From a virus (lineage: Duplodnaviria; Caudoviricetes): a stretch of DNA of 64,000 nt. The position numbers and the translations under genes are program-made. Shown here piece after piece: positions 2,810-54,957 of the stretch; the first letter of the stretch is position 1; every line of letters begins with the position of its first letter. The notes under the pieces were generated by a model, which was not told the DNA's origin, did no database searches, and saw only the letters and a program-made list of their open reading frames with translations. The DNA is taken from positions 1-64,000 of the IMG/VR virus record IMGVR_UViG_3300021378_000015, one strand, 5' to 3'.

Positions 2810-3239
2810 ACTCCTCCTCTCCACCCATCTTGCGGTAAAGGCGGGCTACTATTAGCCGGCCTTTTTGCGTTAAGGCGTATCGTACTGCATAGTTATACTT
2901 AGTCTCTTCTCTAAATATATGATCCTCTATGTGATGACTGGGTGTTAGTTTATCGAAGTGTTTATATATAAAGCCTTTGCTCTTTAGTGTCCATATGAAA
3001 TGCTTCCGCATTTGGTTTTCACTCTTCTGCATTTTAGTTGCAACGTACTTTATTGTCCAAAATTCAAGATCGTAAACAAACAAAATGAAATCTACTTCAG
3101 GTCTGGTAAGACTATAATTGTTTTTAGCATCTCTGTATAGGTATGTTAGATTCTTTAAATAGTTTTCTTTGACAAACTTTTTGTTTATCTTAGAGAATTC
3201 TCGGAATCTTTTCTTTCGGTCTACCCTACTTTTAGGCAT
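2799..3239 (-). CDS. Putative winged-helix DNA-binding protein
   Basis: LT..EVDFILFVY, LKSKGFI, YALTQKGR (MarR-like wing); paralog 62322-62786. Confidence 0.65.
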   Translation of the reverse strand: MPKSRVDRKKRFREFSKINKKFVKENYLKNLTYLYRDAKNNYSLTRPEVDFILFVYDLEFWTIKYVATKMQKSENQMRKHFIWTLKSKGFIYKHFDKLTPSHHIEDHIFREETKYNYAVRYALTQKGRLIVARLYRKMGGEEEFNP

Positions 3240-3271
3240 ATCAGTATCTTTGCTGATACAAACATAATCAT

Positions 3272-4249
3272 ATGGCATCACTTAGCGGAAATAAAATAAA
3301 GGATACTTTTAATCTACTCTTGAAACTTCAATCTTCAGAGGCATCAGCCACTGAGCAAGTTGTAGAAGATGGAGCAGGCAACGATACAGCGTTAAAGATA
3401 TCTACAGATACAGTAGAGACTACGGGATCCCTGAAAATATCTGGGACACCATCTACATCCACATCAAACACTACGGCTCTTATGCTCGATGGTAGTGGCG
3501 TTGTTGTAACACGTAACCTCAGCACCAGCCCAATTGGTACTGCATCGATCACAGCAAATACACCGCTATCTGCAACAGGTAGCACTATTGAGTTAAAAGA
3601 CCCAGCGCTACTAAGTCAAATCACTCAGCCGGCGACTAATGATAAGTATCTGATCTGGGATGAAAGCGCCAGTGCTTATAAATACATTGAGCAATCGGAT
3701 TTAGCAACGGCAGTAGGTAATTCTATAACCGCTGGTACGGCAACACAAGGCATCATGTATGCTCGTGCAGGAGCAACCTTACAAATGAGTAGTGCAGCGA
3801 CCAACACGCTTGTTCAGTACGCAGAGATATACGAGGACAGTTCGGCGACTGGTGCAACTACGGCAACTGGGAGTTCAGTATGGTTTGGTACACTGGCCAA
3901 TGGTGCCTCACAACCTGGATTATCTATTTCTCAAGTTTCTGATCCAAGAGATTCAGTTCTAATAAATGAGATTGAAGGGTGGTTTAAAATAACGGGAACT
4001 ATACAGGTAATACTAACTGCGGGTGCGGACTTTAATATAGAAGTTAATAGTACAATCATTCGGACGATAACGGTACCAGCAGTAGCCGGAGAAATAAGCA
4101 CATATACTCTTTCTGCTCTTTATTATTCCGATGGTGCATCAGGTTATAAAATTAGACTCACAGGTCAAGCCGACGGGTTAGGTGTTAACGTGTATGGAGT
4201 CAATACATCTCTTGAGGTTGAGTACATGGGTGATAACGCAACCTTATAA
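3272..4249 (+). CDS. Putative virion fibre or structural protein with beta-rich C-terminal domain
   Basis: Thr/Ser/Gly-rich; paralog 62818-63786 with conserved N-half and diverged C-half. Confidence 0.65.
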   Translation: MASLSGNKIKDTFNLLLKLQSSEASATEQVVEDGAGNDTALKISTDTVETTGSLKISGTPSTSTSNTTALMLDGSGVVVTRNLSTSPIGTASITANTPLSATGSTIELKDPALLSQITQPATNDKYLIWDESASAYKYIEQSDLATAVGNSITAGTATQGIMYARAGATLQMSSAATNTLVQYAEIYEDSSATGATTATGSSVWFGTLANGASQPGLSISQVSDPRDSVLINEIEGWFKITGTIQVILTAGADFNIEVNSTIIRTITVPAVAGEISTYTLSALYYSDGASGYKIRLTGQADGLGVNVYGVNTSLEVEYMGDNATL

Positions 4250-4554
4250 TGACAAAACAAGAAAGATTAGAATTCTTCCAGCAGTTAAGATTAAAACTTG
4301 ACGAGATCGATGATCTTATGGATTCCTATGGCGGTAAAGAAGAGTTCCTATCTATGTATTGTTTTGGTGCGTTTTTACCTGGAGACGAAGACCTTGATAC
4401 CAATGACAGGTATGAGTTTATGTGCGGCATGCATATGTCCGCAATAGAGGAATATGAATTAATGACAGATACAGTAGAAGATACTTTCACTAATTATTTA
4501 CAAGATGAAAGTGACAGAGGGGATTCCTCTTCAATTGACTACTGGTTAAATTAA
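4249..4554 (+). CDS. Hypothetical acidic protein
   Basis: TAATG-coupled; paralog from 63786. Confidence 0.8.
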   Translation: MTKQERLEFFQQLRLKLDEIDDLMDSYGGKEEFLSMYCFGAFLPGDEDLDTNDRYEFMCGMHMSAIEEYELMTDTVEDTFTNYLQDESDRGDSSSIDYWLN

Positions 4555-4559
4555 ATGAA

Positions 4560-4799
4560 ATGGAACTTATTAGAAAAATCATTATCGGGCAAAACCCGAA
4601 AGATGCCATGGCTTACTATGTAGGGCAGAAGGCAGGAGAGTCAGTAATCGATTCTATCGTATTAGACGACAGATGTTTTGTCAAACACGGAATTCGTCGC
4701 TATCTTGTATACATCTATAATAAAGAACAGGGTATAATGCTTTGGAAGACAGTAGATGATATGCCAGTATTAATTGAACATGATTGTGACTTCGAATGA
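4560..4799 (+). CDS. Conserved hypothetical phage protein
   Basis: IRKIIIG..PKDAMAYYVGQ; in operon. Confidence 0.75.
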   Translation: MELIRKIIIGQNPKDAMAYYVGQKAGESVIDSIVLDDRCFVKHGIRRYLVYIYNKEQGIMLWKTVDDMPVLIEHDCDFE

Positions 4800-5359
4800 T
4801 TGTAATTGATAATTTTATAAAAGACCAAGATCTTTTGATGGATCTTGAACTTAACAAAGAATACCTATTTAGTGATAACGGATCTTACTACTGGTGGAAC
4901 GGATGGTGGAACTCACCAGACGATACATTAAAGAAAAGACTAATCTGTTATATATGGAGAGACTATCCTCCGTATGGATCTGTTTCTTTAGATGGCTTTG
5001 AGTACTGGACCGGACAATACGGTGAAGGTAAAGGAGTGTCTAACCTAAATATGCACTTAGACAAAGACGAAGACTTATGGAAAACAACGGGTGAAATAAA
5101 AGCCCCTATCATAGGTACAGTGTTCTATCCTGTTGAAATGGACATAGAAGGTGGTTATCTTGAGATATTCTCTAATGGTCCTGACAATGAGCCTGAAAGA
5201 ATTCAAGCAAAGTATAATAGGTTAATCATATTTGACGCAGGTAACATACATCACAGAGTTACAACTGTGACCAAAGGAACAAGATCTGCTATTGCAATAA
5301 ATCTTTGGGATGAAGCACCTACAACAAAATTAAAGTTTGAGGCTCCAGAACCAATATGA
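4796..5359 (+). CDS. 2OG-Fe(II) oxygenase (prolyl-hydroxylase-like)
   Basis: HLD...GGYL...NRLIIFD..HRV...RSAI: HxD..H triad plus 2OG-binding Arg. Confidence 0.85.
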   Translation: MIVIDNFIKDQDLLMDLELNKEYLFSDNGSYYWWNGWWNSPDDTLKKRLICYIWRDYPPYGSVSLDGFEYWTGQYGEGKGVSNLNMHLDKDEDLWKTTGEIKAPIIGTVFYPVEMDIEGGYLEIFSNGPDNEPERIQAKYNRLIIFDAGNIHHRVTTVTKGTRSAIAINLWDEAPTTKLKFEAPEPI

Positions 5360-32480: not shown

Positions 32481-33629
32481 ATGGCAATAGGACCTTTAAT
32501 TAACCTTGGTGCAGGTTTAGCAAAAACCGGATACGGATTGTATCAGGAGAATCTTGCTAAAAGAAAAATGGCGCAGGCTGATCAAACTGCCATGGGACCT
32601 ATTCGTTCACAGGCTGCACGTCAGCGCATTGCGCGTCAAGAATCTGATTCACAGTCAGCGATAGATGCAGCGTTACGATCACAAGCCACACAAGCCCAGC
32701 AGATTGGGGCAACTGGCGGCTCTCGTTCTTTGCAGGCAGCAACTCCTGCATTACTTAGAGCAACAGAGTTAACAACCGGACGCGCATTAGATAGATTTGG
32801 GTCATTAGGTGCAAGAACATCTCAACTTGAAGACAAAGTAAACTTAGCAAATGCTAATGTAGGTGTAAACGCTAACCTTGCTCGATTACAACGTGCGGCA
32901 GATGCTGCTCGCTCTGTAACTTTAAGCGGTGTATCTGACGTTATCGGAGGAACAGCCGGCCTACTTGGAGGCATTGGTAAAAAAGGGAAGGGCACTGATG
33001 ATGTTGTTGAAACCATGACGGAAGAAACAATAACTCCAGAGAAACAGGCAGTTATGGATCAAGCCAGTATACCAATGACAACAAATGCTTTTGGTGCAAT
33101 GGATATTCCTGGAAGCAGTATGGCTGGAGTAAACAGAGCGTCTGATATTGCAGTACGTAGAAAGGGCGCTGGCCTCAATTTAACACCTGAGTACGAAGTC
33201 AATGCAAGTAACTATGCTCCTTCACCTGTTGGAGTACAAGACATTGATACTTCATTTGATACCAAGGCAGAATATGACTTTTTAAATCAGAGTCGTGCTA
33301 AAGCAACAACTCAATTAGATGATCTTGCTAATAGAGTAAACACTTTTGAAGACAGGCAAGAAGAAGAAATCAATAGATTGGGTCTGTTGAACCAGCCTAT
33401 GAGTGAAGGTGGAGAATTAGACAGAGCAGAAAAAACACCAGGTGATTTTGATCATGAAGAAAACCCAATTGACATTGTGCAAGAGGGAGACAAGATTGGT
33501 GAGATGACTGGAGGAGAGTATATATTTAACCCAGAGCAAGCAGAGGAATTGTTAGAACTTTCTAAAGAAGGTGATAGTGAACTACATGAGTTCGTCCGTA
33601 ACTTGTTAAGTAAAGAACAATTTAAGTAA
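32481..33629 (+). CDS. Putative internal virion (ejection) protein
   Basis: Ala/Gly/Gln-rich helical; EMTGGEYIFNPEQ C-terminal motif; promoter TATTTTTG 32452-32459. Confidence 0.6.
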   Translation: MAIGPLINLGAGLAKTGYGLYQENLAKRKMAQADQTAMGPIRSQAARQRIARQESDSQSAIDAALRSQATQAQQIGATGGSRSLQAATPALLRATELTTGRALDRFGSLGARTSQLEDKVNLANANVGVNANLARLQRAADAARSVTLSGVSDVIGGTAGLLGGIGKKGKGTDDVVETMTEETITPEKQAVMDQASIPMTTNAFGAMDIPGSSMAGVNRASDIAVRRKGAGLNLTPEYEVNASNYAPSPVGVQDIDTSFDTKAEYDFLNQSRAKATTQLDDLANRVNTFEDRQEEEINRLGLLNQPMSEGGELDRAEKTPGDFDHEENPIDIVQEGDKIGEMTGGEYIFNPEQAEELLELSKEGDSELHEFVRNLLSKEQFK

Positions 33630-35284
33630 TGGCTGATACATCCCAATTTATGGCAATAGGCCAGATGCCGTCTGTTGATTATGGTGCTATATATGAGCGC
33701 TCTAAACAACGCCGTGAACTGGAAGAGCAAAGAAAGTTAGATTACTTAAATCAGTTTCAGCAAGAGCGTGGTGCTTTTGCTCCTGGAGTAAAGGCTGAAC
33801 TTCAAAAAGTTTATGACGATACTATCAAGGCAGAGTTAGATAAAGGTGACATGTCTTTTGAGGGTAAGTCCAGACTACAGCGCAACTATAATGCTTACAA
33901 AGATCTTGCAGCAAATGCACTTGACTACACTGGACGCATTAATGATTTCGAAGCGTCGATCATGGCGGATCCAAAATCGTTTAACGATCCCGGTGCACTC
34001 ATAGAAACATTAGGTGTCGCAAGAGATTCTCAAATACCATTGAGTCAACTACCACAGATAATGCAAGACCTGCCTAATCCAAATGATTACCGTAGGTTCG
34101 AAGTAACAGAGATGGCTCCAATGGCCGTTGCTGGCGACATACTAAAGAAGTTAAAAACTGAGGGTGGGGGTATTAATCGTTTCTACGATATGGCCAAGAG
34201 TGGTCAGATTGATCCAGCCTCAATTACTGAAACTGTAACAGCGTGGTTTGACGGTAATCAAATATCTCAAGAACAAGAGAATGAGGCTATTGCTTTTTCT
34301 ATGCGTCAGTTAGGTGCATTAGACCAAGACCTTACAGATTACTCTAAACTAAATCAGTTAAGTGAAGAGCAGAGATTAAAATATCTACAGCAGTACGCAG
34401 GATATGTGACAGATGCTGTTACTAATTTATTGGCAGACGACATAACAACAGCGGCGGAACAAGCGAATGCTGAGATTCGTGAGTATGCCCAGAAAGAAGA
34501 CATTAAAGCGCGTGCAAAGGCTCGATATAAAGGAGCAGATGGTTCACAAGGTGATGCTGGTGCTCAAGGATTCCAAGTAGGTGCATTAGAATATGTTCCA
34601 GCATATGGTACAGATGAAAGAGGAAAGGTAACCAATCAGTCTCGCAAAGATTATAAAGACCAGTATGGAGACGATGGTATAGCCCAGGCTCAAACTGACC
34701 TCTTTAAAAACGTAAGTTATAGTCAACCTACTATTGTAAGTAGAAAAGGAGATAACAATGTATACACTGTAGAGTCTCTTGCTATAGGTCCAAACGGAGA
34801 AAAGTTAGTGTCTCTTCGTTTTAATCAAGAAGTTGCTGGAAAGAAAAAGACTGTAAGAACTATTGTTGATTTTGAGGATATCAAAAATGAAGGAATCAAA
34901 GGAGGACAAAAAGCAGTAGACAGAATAAGTAGTGACCTTGAAGGTATGTCAGCATACTGGACACAGAACATTCTTCCTACGAAGAACCAAGTTTCTTCTG
35001 TCACAGAAGAGCAGGTTATTATGCCTACAGCGAGCAGCAGAATATCACGATTGGAAGGAATGACTGGAGAGGGAACTCCGCCTTCTGAAGAAGCAAAATC
35101 AGAAACGTCAGCAAGAGAACGTCGTAGATTACAAATCGTACAAGCGAGTAGTCCTGAAGAACGTGCACAAATTATTGCACAGCAACTTCAAGAAGATTTA
35201 CCAGACGAAGAGAAAGAAGAGTTAATTGAGATGGGTGAAATGCCTATATTCGATCCATCAACCTTACCAAATGTTATAGATTAA
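33629..35284 (+). CDS. Putative internal virion (ejection) protein
   Basis: Helical 551 aa between nozzle and giant protein. Confidence 0.6.
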   Translation: MADTSQFMAIGQMPSVDYGAIYERSKQRRELEEQRKLDYLNQFQQERGAFAPGVKAELQKVYDDTIKAELDKGDMSFEGKSRLQRNYNAYKDLAANALDYTGRINDFEASIMADPKSFNDPGALIETLGVARDSQIPLSQLPQIMQDLPNPNDYRRFEVTEMAPMAVAGDILKKLKTEGGGINRFYDMAKSGQIDPASITETVTAWFDGNQISQEQENEAIAFSMRQLGALDQDLTDYSKLNQLSEEQRLKYLQQYAGYVTDAVTNLLADDITTAAEQANAEIREYAQKEDIKARAKARYKGADGSQGDAGAQGFQVGALEYVPAYGTDERGKVTNQSRKDYKDQYGDDGIAQAQTDLFKNVSYSQPTIVSRKGDNNVYTVESLAIGPNGEKLVSLRFNQEVAGKKKTVRTIVDFEDIKNEGIKGGQKAVDRISSDLEGMSAYWTQNILPTKNQVSSVTEEQVIMPTASSRISRLEGMTGEGTPPSEEAKSETSARERRRLQIVQASSPEERAQIIAQQLQEDLPDEEKEELIEMGEMPIFDPSTLPNVID

Positions 35285-35293
35285 TTTATATAA

Positions 35294-38200
35294 ATGGAAG
35301 ATCAAGACTTACTAATAGAGTTGCAATCCGCTTACGATCGTGGTGTTTCACTGGAGCAAATTCAACAGGTTCTCAGTGATGACCCTAATGTAGAGCAGGG
35401 TGCGTTACAAGTTGCAGAAGATTTCTTTTTAAAAAAAAAAGACTCTTCCGAAGGTTCACAGGCAGGAGATCTCGTGGTATCAGAATCAGAATCGGTTCAA
35501 GATACTATGGCATCTCCTTCTACAGCAGTCGACTCTAACTCTGGATTTCTTTTACAGGAAGGTCTTACATCTTTATCAGATGCATACGATCGTGGTGTAA
35601 ATCTTTCTCAAATTGAGCAAGAGTTTCAGGACGACCCTGAATTCGTAACCTTAGCAAAGGACTACTATAAAACTTTAGACTCTCGTGTATGGGATGATCC
35701 ACGCGAAGAAGGCATGGGTATTATCATTGATGATAATCCTAACATGCTTGGTCGCCTATGGAATAGAGGTGCGGCTTCAGGACGCCTTGCTGCTGAAATA
35801 GCAAAGGGTGAGGCAACCGGATACATGAATTGGGAGAATATCGCCTACCTAAATAGTATCATGCAACGAGACGGAGTAAAGAAAACAGGTGAGGAAAACC
35901 CTGTTTTTGATTTTGCTGGTGATGTAATTCGTGCTATACCTGAATCTTTAATATCAATGGCAACTGGAATAGAGGCTGGTCTTGCTGGAGCAGCGACTGG
36001 AGCCGGTACTGGAGCAGGAGTAGGATCTGTTGTGCCAGGGATAGGAACAGCGGTTGGTGCAGGTACTGGTGCTGTCTCTGGTTTCTTTGGCGCATCATCT
36101 TTAGCAATTGAGTATGCTCACTCTTTGATGGACGTTATCCGTGAAGAAGGTGTGAATGTTACAGACGGTGATCAATTAGCATTTGCATTTGAGGATGAAG
36201 AACTCATGGATCGTGCTCGCGAGAAAGGACTGAAGAGGGGTATTCCTATTGCAGTATTCGATGCTATTTCAGGTGGTGTTGGTGGTAAGGTTGGTACAAC
36301 CGTTGTAAAAAACATATCAAAATCAGCAACAAACAGAGCCGCTAAGATTTTAGCAGCAGAAACATTAACTCAAGGTGCACTTGGTGCTGGTGGAGAACTG
36401 TCTGGGCAGTTGGTTGCAGGTGAAAAGATACGTCCTCGTGACATTGCTCTTGAAGCATTTGCTGAGTTAGGTCCTGCTGCTCCTGTGATGGCATACAACC
36501 TTGCGGGTCGTATAAACGCTACTCCAGGAGAGTTAAAGTATGCTGACAACATAAAGGCTAAGGAGAAGCAAAGCGATGTAGTAGAGGCCAGCAATGCGGT
36601 AGATGCTATACCGGAGATGTCTAAACTAAATACAGAGATAGAAGAACTTGAGGCTGTAACACCAGTAGATAAAAATGAAGCCCGTGTTAAGAAACAAAAA
36701 CTTAGAGAACTTAGAGATAAGAAGTATGATCTAAAGGCTGACCTTTCTGAGAACTACTTAGCCCTTGATGAAGAAACTCGAAATCAAGTAAAGGCAAAGT
36801 TGGCTATGGTAATGGTCAACGACGAAACAATCTCTGCTCAAGGAGCCAACCCTGAACTTTCAAATGTTCTACGTGAAGAAAATAAAAAACTAAAGGCTGA
36901 GATTAAAGAAACAATAACCGGAAAAACAACAAGCAATGATCAAGCAAGTGGGCAAGAAGTACAGGGTGACATCGAAGCAAGGCAAGAACTTGGGGACGTA
37001 CCCGACACTGAAGGAAGCGCAACGCCGGTTACAGTTAGTGGAATACTTCAAGCGCGTGAAGAAGAAGGGCAAACGCAAGGAGAATTAATTGAAGGGGAAG
37101 CAACTGAGCGCTCATCATCTTTCTTAAATATAAAAGATAGAGATGGTCAAAGCCTTAATCTTTATGACCCTAATGATGCTGCTGCTTTACGTCGTGCTTT
37201 AGATGAGGGTGAGTTCAGAGCCGGGGAAAGAGAGTATTTAGAAAATATGATTCTTGCTTCAGAGTCATATCGCAAGTCAATTCCCGAAGCAAAGATGTTT
37301 GTTATTGGCTTCGGTAGAGAGGGGTATCAAAATGCACTTGAACGTACTGGATTTGGAAGAGACAAGCCAGGACAAAGAAGTGCTGGTATGACTGCTCGTG
37401 ATAGGGGGCAAAAAAATGTAGGTAGAATAGCATTAGAAGTACCAGTGGAAAGTTCTCTTTATGGCGAGGCTCAAGGCCGTGGACCAGGTGAGAAGTTTAC
37501 GGGGATTCAAACAGCGTATCATGAAATCTTTCACAATGTTTTAAATCAACATTTTGGGGAGAACCTATCTGATTACAATCAGTTAAGAAAGTTAGTGATT
37601 CGACAACTCGCAGAGTCAGATGTAAAGCAATTAAATGATTTTGCAAAAAGATACGCAGATGCAGATGATGTTACTGGTACACTACCTTCTGAGGAGTTCA
37701 TGGTTCAGTTGTCTGGACTTCTTGCAAATAAGAATATTAAGTTTGCTCCTTCTTTTTTAGAACAACTTAAAGCCTTTATAGGTAAGATTATTCAAAAGGT
37801 TACAGGAGGACGTGTCAAGTTTCAAGAATTAAACGATGCTGTTCTTGCTCAAGATCTTGCCAACTATTTAAAAGGAACGACTGAGGCTATGCGTCTTGGT
37901 GCTGATGTTAGAGAAGTTTCACAGCCTGCTTCTTTAAGAACAGAGCGTTTCCAAAGAACAAGGCAAGACGTAAGGTTTGGGCCTGATGGTGAAGTAGTTA
38001 GTCTTACTGAAGCACGAAATGCTGCGAGTCTACCTGATCCTGAAAACTATAACCGAACACTTGATCCTGTAGAAAAACTTTTAAAAAGTATAAAGGACAA
38101 GACAAGCAGTGCTACAAGAGCATTAGAAAAAAAATTAAACACTGGTCTTAGAAAAGTTAGAGGAGAGGTTCTGTCTGCGATGGAATTCAAACAGTCTGCT

Positions 38201-41200
38201 AACATACCATATCTAAAGAACCTTGCCAATAGACTTAAAAGTGTCAGAAAGATTACTGATAAGATGACACCAGAACAGCGTGATGAAGTCTATGAGGCTT
38301 CAGATGCATTCTTGTTTGGTGAAGATCAGAAGACCAGGGACGAAGGGATTGCAAGATTAAAAGAGATTAATGAGACACTTGCTCAGGAAGTAAGTATCAT
38401 GAAACAAATCAGAGATTTTTACCAGGGACAGTTTGAGTCTGACCCTATGTTTGATATACTCCCTGATGAGTTGATAGATATCATAAAAGATAATTCCCAG
38501 TTCTATGGCACCACAACTTATCGTGCGTTTACCGATCCTGATTTTAAGTTTGATAGTGAGTTAGGGAAAGCGGCAGAGCAGGTAATGGTACTGGAAGCCT
38601 TGGAAGATAAGTTTATAGAGTTAACCGATCAATTAACTCTTGCTCCAGAAGGGATGAAAGTCTTGGCTGAAATGCGGGAAATGAAACTTGATCCGCGTAA
38701 ACCAGATGATGTTAAAAAATATGTAGAGGCTAAGAAGAAGTCCTTAAACAAGGGGATAAAAGATATTTCCAAAGAGGGTAACACCTCGGCGGTTGTAACA
38801 GCGACAGATAACCTTAAAGCATTTTCTGAAAAAGATTTATCTCAGATACAAGAAGAAATAGATGCAGCATTTCTTGCTGAAAAAATACAAGCGCAAAATT
38901 TACGTTGGGATACAGACGAAGGACTTTTCGCTTATATAGACAAAGTTGAAGCCCCTGCAATTCAGGCTCAGGTAAGAAAATACATCAAAGACATACAGAT
39001 AACGTCTCGTCAAAACATTAACAATGCTGACAATGGTTTTGTTAAAGACACCAGTTTAGGTGGCCTCAGAGTGCCTACTAAATCCTTTAAGGGTAAGCAG
39101 GATCTACCGGTTGAATTAAGAACATTCTTAGGTGAGGAAAGAAATCCATTTATAAAGTTTACTACCACTGTAAACAACTTAGCCAATATCTATGGGCAGT
39201 ATGGATTAGTTTCAAGAGTAAACAAGGCGGGGCAAAACGCAGGCACAGGTGACATAATTATTACTAAGGCTATTGCTGATGCGATCATGAATGGAATCTA
39301 TTTGTTAGATGCTAAAGGAGATACGTTGCCGGTATTCATGAATGACATCAATGAGGTCTCTGCACGAGCGCAAAAAGAACTGATATATTTGGCAGAAGGC
39401 TTGGGCTTAAAAAGAAGAGACGAGTCGCTTACAGATTTCTATGACAGAATAGGAATTGAGTATAAAGAAAAAGACTACCAAACTAAAGTAATGTTTGTCG
39501 AGGGTAAAGTCGACAAGGTAATTGAGCCAACTAATTTTAATGAGTTCCAAAAATTAAGTGATGCTATAGAGATTTACTTTAGAGAAAACTATACATCAGT
39601 TCAAGATAATAACTCACCTCTTAAAGGTCAGTCTATTAATAATGATTTTGTAGAAGCGTTAAAGATGACGCCACTGTATGCTGCGAAGAACCAGGGTATG
39701 CGAATCTACTATGGTATCCTATTGCAGATGCGTAGAACACGGGTACTCTATAACCTGCCTACCTGGAGAAAGAACATTATGGGTGGTTGGTATTTCCTGG
39801 GGCTTAATGGAATACTTCCTATTGGTGAAAACTTAGGTGGCTATAATATTATAAAGGATCTAAGAACACGATTAAAGAAAATGAAAGATGGGGAATATAC
39901 TGATCCCCAAATACAAGAGCACTTTGAGACAGCGGCTAAGTACGGACTATTTGGTAGTTCTATTAGCCTGGCTATGTTTGACAACATCAATAATTCTTTC
40001 TATTCTCAGATGAGTGGAGAGAACCCCAATAAAGCATGGGGCTGGATGAAACAAAAATCAAAAGACTTAGCATATCAGTACGGTGCGATAGATGACTATA
40101 CTAAATTAGTAGGCTTCCTTGCTAAGAGAGAAAACTTTGCGAAGCGTTTAGCCTCTAACCCAGAAGGCAAACCATTCAGTGAGTTAAATCCTCAAGAGCA
40201 AAACGAAGTAAACGAGATGACAGCGGAGAGAATAAAACAAAACTTCCCGACGATGTCACGTATACACCCTGCTTTCAGGGGTCTTATGCAGAGTCCTTTT
40301 GGGGATTTCCTTTCGTTTAGACTGGAGTCGTTCCGTAGTTTTCTTGCTGTATACCAAAATGCAGTAAGTGATATAAGAGAGGGTGCAACTAATGAAAGTT
40401 TAACACCATCGCAAAAGAAAGCATACATCCTTGACGGTACGAAAGCATTGGTTACTGGATCAGCACTGGCAGGTATGTCTGCTGTTGGTTACACAATGAT
40501 TGGTGAACTTGTTCGCAGTCTCACGGGGAAAGAAGATGAAGATGAGCAAGAATTAGCAGCAACAGCAAGAGGTGTTAACATGATACTCCCCCCGTGGATG
40601 CAGGGCGCTAACATTGTCCCTATTGAAATGAATAAGAATGGTGAGATTCGTTTTGTAAACATGAGTTCAGAAGATCCTTACGATGAGATACAGGGATTGA
40701 TATATGGTCGTGACGGAATAAATAGGCTCACTCAAATCAATGAGATACTGTCAGACTTTAAAGATCCTAACATGGCGGTTAAACTTGTGTTTAATTTAGC
40801 CAAAGGAGAAAACCAATACGGACAACCGATAAGAAACAGCGATGATCTAAACTGGTTTTACAGACACTTGATCCCTTCTTCTTACTTAGACTGGGATAAG
40901 ACGACTGGCACCTATGTTTTAAAAGAAGTATTTATACCACCGAACATTGCTTTTATTGAGCGTACTCTAAGAAAGAGAGCAAAGGAAATACAAGATGCAG
41001 AAAAAGAAGGGCGTGATCCAGAGTTAGAACCTTTGAATGCACTTCAATTGGGTACTAATATATTCTTTAGAGACTACCCAGTTAATATCGCCAGTCAATT
41101 TGGTTGGAATCTCAAAGACAAAAACTTTAGAGAGAAGTGGGAAGATATTCCTGAAAGTAGAAGAACTGTACGCAAGGCGCATCTCGATGAGGTTAAGCAG

Positions 41201-41344
41201 GCTTATCAGTATGGGGTGACTTATGGTGAGGCAAAAGACAACTATGATCTTATTGATAAGTTTGAGAATCAAGTGCGTAGGAAGTTCGGTCGTAGCCCAG
41301 CAGAATTAGATTACATCCTGTATGACATGGAGTTACCAGATTAA
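35294..41344 (+). CDS. Giant ejection or polyvalent protein with HExxH metallopeptidase-like motif
   Basis: 2016 aa; Gly/Ala hydrophobic segment, AYHEIFH..EEF, duplicated L..AYDRGV.L.QI.Q...DDP. Confidence 0.7.
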   Translation: MEDQDLLIELQSAYDRGVSLEQIQQVLSDDPNVEQGALQVAEDFFLKKKDSSEGSQAGDLVVSESESVQDTMASPSTAVDSNSGFLLQEGLTSLSDAYDRGVNLSQIEQEFQDDPEFVTLAKDYYKTLDSRVWDDPREEGMGIIIDDNPNMLGRLWNRGAASGRLAAEIAKGEATGYMNWENIAYLNSIMQRDGVKKTGEENPVFDFAGDVIRAIPESLISMATGIEAGLAGAATGAGTGAGVGSVVPGIGTAVGAGTGAVSGFFGASSLAIEYAHSLMDVIREEGVNVTDGDQLAFAFEDEELMDRAREKGLKRGIPIAVFDAISGGVGGKVGTTVVKNISKSATNRAAKILAAETLTQGALGAGGELSGQLVAGEKIRPRDIALEAFAELGPAAPVMAYNLAGRINATPGELKYADNIKAKEKQSDVVEASNAVDAIPEMSKLNTEIEELEAVTPVDKNEARVKKQKLRELRDKKYDLKADLSENYLALDEETRNQVKAKLAMVMVNDETISAQGANPELSNVLREENKKLKAEIKETITGKTTSNDQASGQEVQGDIEARQELGDVPDTEGSATPVTVSGILQAREEEGQTQGELIEGEATERSSSFLNIKDRDGQSLNLYDPNDAAALRRALDEGEFRAGEREYLENMILASESYRKSIPEAKMFVIGFGREGYQNALERTGFGRDKPGQRSAGMTARDRGQKNVGRIALEVPVESSLYGEAQGRGPGEKFTGIQTAYHEIFHNVLNQHFGENLSDYNQLRKLVIRQLAESDVKQLNDFAKRYADADDVTGTLPSEEFMVQLSGLLANKNIKFAPSFLEQLKAFIGKIIQKVTGGRVKFQELNDAVLAQDLANYLKGTTEAMRLGADVREVSQPASLRTERFQRTRQDVRFGPDGEVVSLTEARNAASLPDPENYNRTLDPVEKLLKSIKDKTSSATRALEKKLNTGLRKVRGEVLSAMEFKQSANIPYLKNLANRLKSVRKITDKMTPEQRDEVYEASDAFLFGEDQKTRDEGIARLKEINETLAQEVSIMKQIRDFYQGQFESDPMFDILPDELIDIIKDNSQFYGTTTYRAFTDPDFKFDSELGKAAEQVMVLEALEDKFIELTDQLTLAPEGMKVLAEMREMKLDPRKPDDVKKYVEAKKKSLNKGIKDISKEGNTSAVVTATDNLKAFSEKDLSQIQEEIDAAFLAEKIQAQNLRWDTDEGLFAYIDKVEAPAIQAQVRKYIKDIQITSRQNINNADNGFVKDTSLGGLRVPTKSFKGKQDLPVELRTFLGEERNPFIKFTTTVNNLANIYGQYGLVSRVNKAGQNAGTGDIIITKAIADAIMNGIYLLDAKGDTLPVFMNDINEVSARAQKELIYLAEGLGLKRRDESLTDFYDRIGIEYKEKDYQTKVMFVEGKVDKVIEPTNFNEFQKLSDAIEIYFRENYTSVQDNNSPLKGQSINNDFVEALKMTPLYAAKNQGMRIYYGILLQMRRTRVLYNLPTWRKNIMGGWYFLGLNGILPIGENLGGYNIIKDLRTRLKKMKDGEYTDPQIQEHFETAAKYGLFGSSISLAMFDNINNSFYSQMSGENPNKAWGWMKQKSKDLAYQYGAIDDYTKLVGFLAKRENFAKRLASNPEGKPFSELNPQEQNEVNEMTAERIKQNFPTMSRIHPAFRGLMQSPFGDFLSFRLESFRSFLAVYQNAVSDIREGATNESLTPSQKKAYILDGTKALVTGSALAGMSAVGYTMIGELVRSLTGKEDEDEQELAATARGVNMILPPWMQGANIVPIEMNKNGEIRFVNMSSEDPYDEIQGLIYGRDGINRLTQINEILSDFKDPNMAVKLVFNLAKGENQYGQPIRNSDDLNWFYRHLIPSSYLDWDKTTGTYVLKEVFIPPNIAFIERTLRKRAKEIQDAEKEGRDPELEPLNALQLGTNIFFRDYPVNIASQFGWNLKDKNFREKWEDIPESRRTVRKAHLDEVKQAYQYGVTYGEAKDNYDLIDKFENQVRRKFGRSPAELDYILYDMELPD
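36936..37088 (+). CDS. Nested +1-frame small basic protein (50 aa)
   Basis: MIKQVGKKYRVTSKQGKNLGTYPTLKEAQRRLQLVEYFKRVKKKGKRKEN; A-rich start context. Confidence 0.6.
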   Translation: MIKQVGKKYRVTSKQGKNLGTYPTLKEAQRRLQLVEYFKRVKKKGKRKEN

Positions 41345-54376: not shown

Positions 54377-54957
54377 TATCCACCACGTTTAGAAGTTAAA
54401 CGCTCAATGAAACTAAGTTTGTCACGACTTAGCCCGGTGTTCTTTAAGCCACTAAGACTTTGGTTCACATCATCACTCACCTCATCTGCAAGAGATTGTA
54501 GTTCACTTAGTGGTACCTCCTCTATCTCAATTTGAGATTGTAGAGTAGACTCAAGGCCTCTGAATGCAACGAACTCATCGAGTTCAGTCACCTTACGGAT
54601 AGCCATAGCCAACAGCGGGTCGGTGCTGTCATTGGATATGAACTCACGCAGTAATTGTTTCGCTTGATTTGCATCAAGTGCTTCAATCTCCACGCTATCC
54701 AGGATCGCAGGGGTGTTGGGTACTACCGCTCGCTTGAGTACTCGTGAGTCCTCTGCGATAGGTGTAATAGTTGTGAGGGTAGGTAGGTTCCTTCCTCTAC
54801 CACAAAATTCTACGAACGCTAAACGCGCATCCTCGTAGTCTTTTGCGAAGACTGTAAAGTAAGATAGCATTGTCTCACCCGCAGGTGCTACTCGGTCAAT
54901 ACTCTTACTGCCTTCACCCAAGTAAGGATTGGGTACGGTTACTGCAAATACTTTCAT
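54376..54957 (-). CDS. Hypothetical protein
   Basis: Start at MKVFAV within the 20-bp start repeat. Confidence 0.7.
   Translation of the reverse strand: MKVFAVTVPNPYLGEGSKSIDRVAPAGETMLSYFTVFAKDYEDARLAFVEFCGRGRNLPTLTTITPIAEDSRVLKRAVVPNTPAILDSVEIEALDANQAKQLLREFISNDSTDPLLAMAIRKVTELDEFVAFRGLESTLQSQIEIEEVPLSELQSLADEVSDDVNQSLSGLKNTGLSRDKLSFIERLTSKRGG

Follow-up and report, generated by a model that had tools for sequence, protein, structure and literature searches.

A probable small gene nested in the +1 frame of a giant late phage gene, and its free-standing relatives

Locus and open reading frames

We analysed a stretch of 64,000 nucleotides (nt), in the following called the window, i.e., positions 1 to 64,000 of the tailed-phage record IMGVR_UViG_3300021378_000015 (Duplodnaviria; Caudoviricetes). 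Within it, we focus on an ATG-started open reading frame (ORF) of 50 codons with a TAA stop at 36936-37088 (+) that lies wholly inside a giant ORF of 2016 codons (35294-41344). We regard the small ORF as a genuine protein-coding gene that starts at its own ATG on the late mRNA shared with the giant late gene, and assign this reading a probability of about 0.82. The features discussed are the following.

35294..41344, + strand: host gene of 2016 codons in the late structural block (ORF; match to phrog_32588)
36936..37088, + strand: probable nested gene (ORF reading; family profile; predicted beta-beta-beta-alpha fold; selection on the +1 frame)
36936..37085, + strand: main-frame linker, residues ~548-598 of the giant protein (acidic, low complexity, hypervariable site)
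36916..36935, + strand: A-rich leader of the nested gene without Shine-Dalgarno sequence (20 nt, 60% A, no T)

The small ORF starts 1642 bases into the giant ORF, i.e., in its +1 frame, and aaaaacaacaagca lies directly 5' of its ATG. In the main frame, the same bases read SNDQASGQEVQGDIEARQELGDVPDTEGSATPVTVSGILQAREEE, an acidic low-complexity stretch. The nested product would be a strongly basic protein of ~6 kDa (17 Lys/Arg vs. 3 Glu, its only acidic residues). Given the 25-row family alignment A2 introduced below, AlphaFold2 predicts a beta-beta-beta-alpha fold with a predicted local distance difference test score (pLDDT) of 88.9, where three short strands (residues 2-5, 8-12 and 18-22) pack onto a long C-terminal helix (residues 25-49). 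A preliminary description of this DNA had proposed the ATG-opened 50-residue frame, the acidic linker character of the main frame and the beta-beta-beta-alpha pattern; our coordinates and translation are identical to those it gave, the main frame reads as it described, and the structure prediction agrees with the fold it proposed.

The giant protein contains a Gly/Ala-rich segment, an HExxH motif (HEIFH) ~190 codons downstream of the nested ORF and a conserved C-terminal half. It matches phrog_32588 (function unknown, E-value 9.8e-17), while searches against Pfam and against the PDB sequences gave no match. The preliminary label of an 'ejection protein' with a peptidase domain can draw only on the HExxH motif and the position within the structural module. 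Upstream of the giant gene, the + strand encodes a terminase (phrog_6681), a portal protein (phrog_6547), a collagen-like fibre and virion structural proteins.

The length of the nested ORF by itself is not beyond chance. Five alternative-frame ORFs of at least 40 amino acids (aa) are found on the + strand inside the giant gene, and synonymous resampling of codons leaves the +1 frame open in 11-56% of the trials per lineage. We thus base the gene status on homology as well as conservation and selection, not on length; on these grounds a chance ORF was rejected. A sequencing frameshift was rejected as well, given that the same arrangement is present in 26 viral contigs besides the window.

Homology to a family of small proteins

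Searching 5.8 billion sequences with the single peptide yielded seven candidates, all of which (7/7) are 43-aa proteins with 55-63% identity and E-values from 3.3e-7 to 4.8e-5. Among 1.84 billion entries, the family profile A2 (25-row alignment, 44 positions) matches 3556 cluster representatives at E<=1e-3, of which 838 pass E<=1e-10. It also retrieves, from 6957 candidates, 4382 proteins that are 23-121 aa long (E<=1e-5) and, from 8000 candidates scored, 646 longer ones. The 120 small members listed are mostly 43-47 aa long, almost all are hypothetical or nameless, and none has a Pfam domain. When the whole source record of the window (81,340 bases) is compared with the profile, a sole copy is found at 36936-37067 that covers positions 1-44 of 44 with an E-value of 2.8e-24. 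This copy retains each of the 12 residues that are invariant in the family (V11, S13, G16, L19, G20, A28, R31, V35, E36, Y37, F38 and K39). Judged by its sequence, the nested protein is thus part of a large family of phage proteins that is without a name and has members of mostly 43-47 aa. That is, the likeness to small stand-alone phage proteins that had been pointed out in the preliminary description is borne out by clear homologs from both sequence and profile search.

We also compared the family with known families and structures. The window peptide gave nothing relevant against Pfam and no DUF2188 match at E<=1. DUF2188 (PF09954), a small uncharacterised domain (bioRxiv 10.1101/2022.04.27.489752), shows weak matches to 4 of 25 family members (best E-value 8e-5) and none at E<=10 to the other 21; with matches short of the Pfam gathering threshold that defines membership, it may possibly be a distant relative at most. 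Among the PHROGs, the peptide and several of its relatives match phrog_3684 (function unknown, 262 positions) at positions ~146-190 with E-values from 4e-4 down to 4.9e-6, i.e., over a segment of only 44 residues and not over most of the profile, as membership would demand.

Foldseek recovers the same module among predicted viral structures with TM scores of 0.7-0.9 and 30-50% identity. The matches sit in small T4-like phage proteins and within XkdF-type, 'cytidyltransferase-like', DUF5824 and polyvalent proteins. Among PDB structures, Foldseek found no match at E<=0.001, VIA-align returned generic beta3-alpha matches only (Z at most 5.4) for solved structures, and the family profile has 0 matches among PDB sequences. 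Regarding AP2 and integrase-arm folds, 2gcc (GCC-box domain) reaches Z 4.3 and 2wcc (lambda Int arm) Z 4.2, values that are equalled by many unrelated beta3-alpha structures (top 5.4). The ESM Atlas search yielded unnamed clusters of 45-49 aa only.

Selection on the +1 frame

To compare codons, we used seven lineages whose giant proteins are 44-47% identical to that of the window. Within the overlap, the conservation of the three main-frame codon positions is 0.70/0.83/0.82 compared to 0.70/0.78/0.47 gene-wide, and the lowest conservation in the overlap coincides with the +1-frame wobble position. The overlap also contains all of the six 20-codon windows with highest third-position conservation (0.81-0.87), while the mean over all such windows is 0.469 with a standard deviation of 0.099. 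That is, main-frame synonymous variation, which had been put forward as a check in the preliminary description, is suppressed over the overlap.

For the same codons, the +1 frame reaches a mean pairwise identity of 0.78 and the main frame one of 0.58. A null model based on synonymous resampling gives a +1 identity of 0.288 (standard deviation 0.016), such that 0/2000 trials reach the observed 0.78, but this null ignores shared ancestry and the comparison of windows within the gene is the better control. The flanks are far less conserved, e.g., the 100 codons upstream are 15% identical between the window and the related locus L003 (compared loci are given L numbers).

Among 438 pairwise differences, 49% alter the main frame while being silent in the +1 frame (20% expected from the possible mutations) and 21% are silent in the main frame while altering the +1 frame (24.5% expected); these counts are not phylogenetically independent, and the sister pair L054/L058 is the cleaner control. 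For this pair, in which L058 has lost the nested frame, the region shows an identity of 0.60, the lowest of 376 windows, compared to 0.817 for the whole gene. Since the region diverges most once the nested frame is lost, the conservation belongs to the nested frame. These comparisons indicate that purifying selection acts on the nested +1 frame.

Among the contig variants listed, none falls within 36824-37096, but a 279-base stretch at 36476-36753 is equally clean and there are 159 more variants beyond those listed, such that we base no conclusion on this pattern.

Distribution among relatives and origin

With the peptide, we found 34 viral-contig loci, among which the copy is nested in 23, free-standing in 5 and the N-terminal part of a longer ORF in 6. 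For the nested loci (23/34), the host open frames comprise 1366-2571 codons and the relative frame is always the same. When searching with the giant protein instead, the +1-frame domain is present in 24 of 33 loci. Two of the nine loci without domain do not span the site and the other seven represent four lineages; the whole records of five gene-lacking loci carry no copy elsewhere, two of them being rated 100% and 96% complete by CheckV. The preliminary description had named a lack of homologs along with a +1 frame broken in close relatives as the outcome that would speak against a gene; besides the homologs reported above, we find the frame open and conserved in most relatives.

In a maximum-likelihood tree of 16 giant proteins (midpoint root), gene-lacking lineages are placed beside or within gene-bearing ones, and the gene is present in both deepest branches. 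Parsimony favours one ancestral presence followed by four losses over five gains and one loss. In L058, the loss of the nested frame is visible, i.e., the main frame is kept while deletions of 12 nt and 6 nt occurred and the family motifs have vanished. Most lineages use ATG as start codon and two clades use GTG; either codon stands where the free-standing homologs begin with MI[KR]K. At the site of the nested gene, the giant proteins of relatives show quite different inserts.

Two further giant ORFs (1365 and >2556 aa) also contain the small gene nested in their +1 frame, namely at L022 6001-6132 and L023 6001-6207, respectively. The domains detected in these giant proteins are phrog_4700 and phrog_947 (the latter in L023, processivity-factor-like). 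Neither BLASTP among the giant proteins of the window, L022 and L023 nor a comparison of profile A3 with L022 reveals similarity outside of the overlap. Either the nested arrangement dates back very far, or it is formed or relocated repeatedly.

Taken together, we infer that, of the two readings, the nested frame came first and is the widespread one, and that the main-frame reading serves as a tolerant linker between the N-terminal region and the HExxH region. With regard to the preliminary suggestion of a captured gene whose alternative frame acts as the linker, the older nested frame and the poorly constrained linker fit, while a capture is one of two conceivable routes. Two genes could have fused across the small gene, or an in-frame domain could have been thrown out of frame. 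For the first route, we compared the first 569 residues of the giant protein with the 812-aa protein upstream of the family copy in Aeromonas phage 1233 by BLASTP, where the best E-value is 1.3. Given that this comparison gave nothing, the model of a fusion across the small gene is without direct support.

In this cultured Aeromonas phage, the free-standing copy is unannotated (L070 4980-5132, i.e., record positions 54709-54852) and encodes ~43 aa from an MIVK start. It follows the 812-aa protein, which is Gly/Ala-rich, and an ORF of 89 aa; no more than 28 features are annotated in this record.

Start site and expression

The nearest terminases are from Flavobacterium, Cellulophaga and Bacteroides phages (41-48% identity among the 15 matches listed), none of 23 other gene starts examined in the window has a Shine-Dalgarno sequence, and TAnnTTTG motifs are located directly upstream of several window gene starts. 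Based on these three observations, the phage probably infects a member of the Bacteroidota.

The leader of the nested ORF resembles that of the other genes in its lack of a Shine-Dalgarno sequence and is A-rich (60% A; 43% A in the upstream 20 nt of the others). The 80 nt around the nested start fold with -4.67 kcal/mol (z-score +1.56), where 193 of 200 shuffled sequences fold at least as well, and two internal control stretches show -10.7 and -14.0 kcal/mol. Bacteroidetes mRNAs are described to be without Shine-Dalgarno sequences, with mRNA structure tuning the initiation (PMC6847099). The weakly structured, Shine-Dalgarno-free nested start would fit this mode of initiation. For the distant nested copy L023, which is found in a Shine-Dalgarno-using phage, AGGAGG is located 5 nt upstream of the ATG. 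Most likely, ribosomes would initiate at the nested ATG on the late mRNA of the giant gene independently of a Shine-Dalgarno sequence, and the A-rich, unstructured context, as at the other genes of the phage, would serve this initiation.

Beside the two statistical reservations given above, several points weigh against this reading. The four giant-gene lineages without nested gene imply that it is dispensable. No -7-type TAnnTTTG motif is found on the + strand within 32799-37738, i.e., there is no own promoter, which is why translation from the late mRNA of the giant gene is assumed, and the nested start must compete with ribosomes that translate the main frame. Contigs from an RNA library span the region but cannot tell transcription, strand or translation. 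Finally, when 50,697 phage records were searched with the peptide by tblastn, only six chance-level matches appeared (E-value 0.5, all in Vibrio portal genes), such that a close copy of the query is absent from the cultured phages of this collection.

Dispensability, illustrated by the four lineages and the decaying remnant in L058, and the lack of both promoter and Shine-Dalgarno sequence would also suit a silent relic, i.e., a once-coding frame that stayed intact through recent ancestry and is now untranslated in this phage. We consider this improbable. The copy in the window retains 12/12 invariant residues along with its strong profile match, and the frame is kept across giant-gene lineages that are only 44-47% identical in protein. 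Furthermore, substitutions preferentially spare the frame, and decay is fast where the frame is lost.

At slightly lower odds still, the domain could be joined to the N-terminal 547 residues of the giant protein by a programmed +1 frameshift (with the isoform ending at 37088) or be spliced in by two shifts. The same domain does occur in frame within large polyvalent and XkdF proteins of other phages, and since a conserved slippery tract (A10) is located close to the 5' end of the giant gene, recoding may occur in this gene. On the other hand, a stop closes the +1 frame 1-38 codons before the start (at a distance of one codon in L004 and L022 and of six in the window) and the lineages share no shift-prone motif, which renders a frameshift fusion unlikely; that is, we find no conserved upstream shift site that is reached by an open frame. 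ATG or GTG, in contrast, is kept where the free-standing homologs start. Also the AGGAGG just upstream of the L023 start argues against recoding, as does the stop, which comes after the domain and a short, variable basic tail.

Least probable is that the conservation stems from a nucleic-acid element (RNA structure or binding site) or from a constraint on the main-frame peptide without any second protein: third-position conservation alone does not tell whether it is due to a second frame or to an RNA or DNA element, and the main-frame peptide is moderately conserved (0.58), yet the +1 translation is homologous to thousands of free-standing proteins with E-values down to 1e-26, for which spurious homology is very unlikely, the least conserved overlap position is the +1 wobble, the local RNA is weakly rather than strongly structured, and the main-frame peptide diverges freely after loss of the +1 frame. 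An RNA-structure element in particular was rejected given the weak local fold and the protein homology of the +1 frame.

Genomic context of relatives and possible function

The free-standing copy of L030 lies just before the portal gene, and that of L025 between the major head gene and a structural gene. In L027, the free-standing gene (4907-5041) has a GTG start with GGAGG upstream and shares ~70 bases with the 3' end of the portal ORF (3043-4977), which represents a second, partial kind of overlap for the small-protein family. In L033, the domain forms the N-terminus of a DUF2213/phrog_530 head maturation protease. A common family form of 245 aa is encoded a few genes after the portal in contigs of up to 480 kb. 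Other fusions of the domain involve tyrosine and histidine phosphatases, SLT, DUF5662 and Fic. One family match lies under the 3' end of a coding sequence annotated as 'RNA ligase' in T4-like phages.

Because the relatives adjoin portal, protease or major head genes, or are fused to the head protease and to effector-type enzymes, we tentatively consider, at somewhat less than even odds, that the nested protein may be a head-associated module which binds packaged nucleic acid or tethers capsid-carried cargo. It tells against this assignment that the function derives from neighbourhoods and fusions only, while the fold searches are generic (see above). A complex prediction for the window's portal protein and the small protein scored 0.00 compared to a mark of 0.32; run without controls, it is no evidence either way.

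Polyvalent proteins have been proposed to be packaged and injected (Iyer et al. 2017, PMC5512222). A wider scenario, which we deem unlikely as a whole, would see the ~44-aa family as an internal-head 'handle' that rides on DNA or portal and carries fused effector enzymes into the host. An ancient free-standing copy would have been engulfed by several unrelated giant ejected proteins, in Shine-Dalgarno-using as well as Shine-Dalgarno-blind hosts, and kept out of frame for expression from the same mRNA as the cargo. The giant gene of the window would then be decoded three ways, i.e., into an A10 slippage product (see below), the full-length protein and the nested protein.

Comparison with known overlapping genes

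The spanin gene Rz1 of phage lambda is wholly embedded in the +1 frame of Rz; its product is a lysis lipoprotein and partner of Rz. Like Rz1, the nested ORF is a small frame with its own start fully within the +1 frame of a larger phage gene, and both frames are under selection. In contrast to Rz/Rz1, to which there is no homology, we are dealing with a basic beta3-alpha protein in a giant virion-module gene, where the embedded gene appears older and widespread and the host frame uses the shared bases only as a linker. Related literature is found under PMC5295617 and PMC6139136. Fully embedded +1-frame phage genes are thus already known as a kind.

Two-frame coding with suppressed synonymous change in the host frame is also shared with the overprinted genes of small viruses, e.g., B in A and E in D of phiX174 (reviews PMC8227390 and PMC7017920). 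While such viruses are limited in size, we observe the arrangement in a tailed phage of 60 kb. Furthermore, in classical overprinting the embedded frame is a de novo newcomer, whereas the embedded frame studied here has thousands of free-standing relatives and it is the host frame that appears novel. That is, an old frame embedded in a new one would be the reverse of textbook overprinting.

In terms of how it works, the family can be likened to MuF-type domains and polyvalent proteins, which are likewise located beside portal genes and fused to diverse effectors (Iyer et al. 2017, PMC5512222). The likeness is one of context, not of sequence; with ~44 residues, the family is far smaller than MuF, and its packaging is hypothetical.

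In the literature searched, we found no description of the nested arrangement or of the small-protein family. New are the old gene inside a new reading, the giant virion-module hosts in several unrelated forms and the unnamed family itself, which comprises thousands of clusters without a Pfam model among the members listed. Since gene callers forbid nested genes, the gene escapes them in no fewer than 26 viral contigs apart from the window (23 plus L040, L064 and L065). The same arrangement in giant proteins without other detectable similarity suggests that the small protein and giant virion proteins may be functionally linked. Sister lineages without the nested frame provide a natural control for the drift speed of the shared bases, and the free-standing copy in Aeromonas phage 1233 makes the family experimentally tractable.

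The A10 tract of the giant gene and the source record

Near the 5' end of the giant gene, an A10 run is located at 35431-35440 (+), where the main frame reads FFLKKKD. A run of A10-A12 is found ~120-160 bases from the start of the giant gene in all lineages with a 5' end (16/16; L048 has none and is left out). Behind the run, the -1 frame comprises 32 codons that encode a conserved Arg-rich peptide with a conserved stop in 11/16 lineages (TAA at 35536-35538 in the window), and it has no start codon of its own. Within this region, main-frame third-position conservation is 0.70-0.80 vs. 0.47 gene-wide. After the A-run of L065 and L066, it is the +1 frame that is open, whereas the -1 frame is closed. 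From its sequence, the tract looks like a candidate site for programmed -1 frameshifting or transcriptional slippage, with a putative product of ~80 aa.

In the N-terminus of the giant protein (window 35294-35700), a motif occurs twice, first as AYDRGVSLEQIQQ and then as AYDRGVNLSQIEQ, while most relatives appear to have one, located before the A-run.

Finally, the source record comprises 81,340 bases while close relatives have ~58-60 kb, which fits a restart of the genome after ~60.5 kb as stated in a separate preliminary description.

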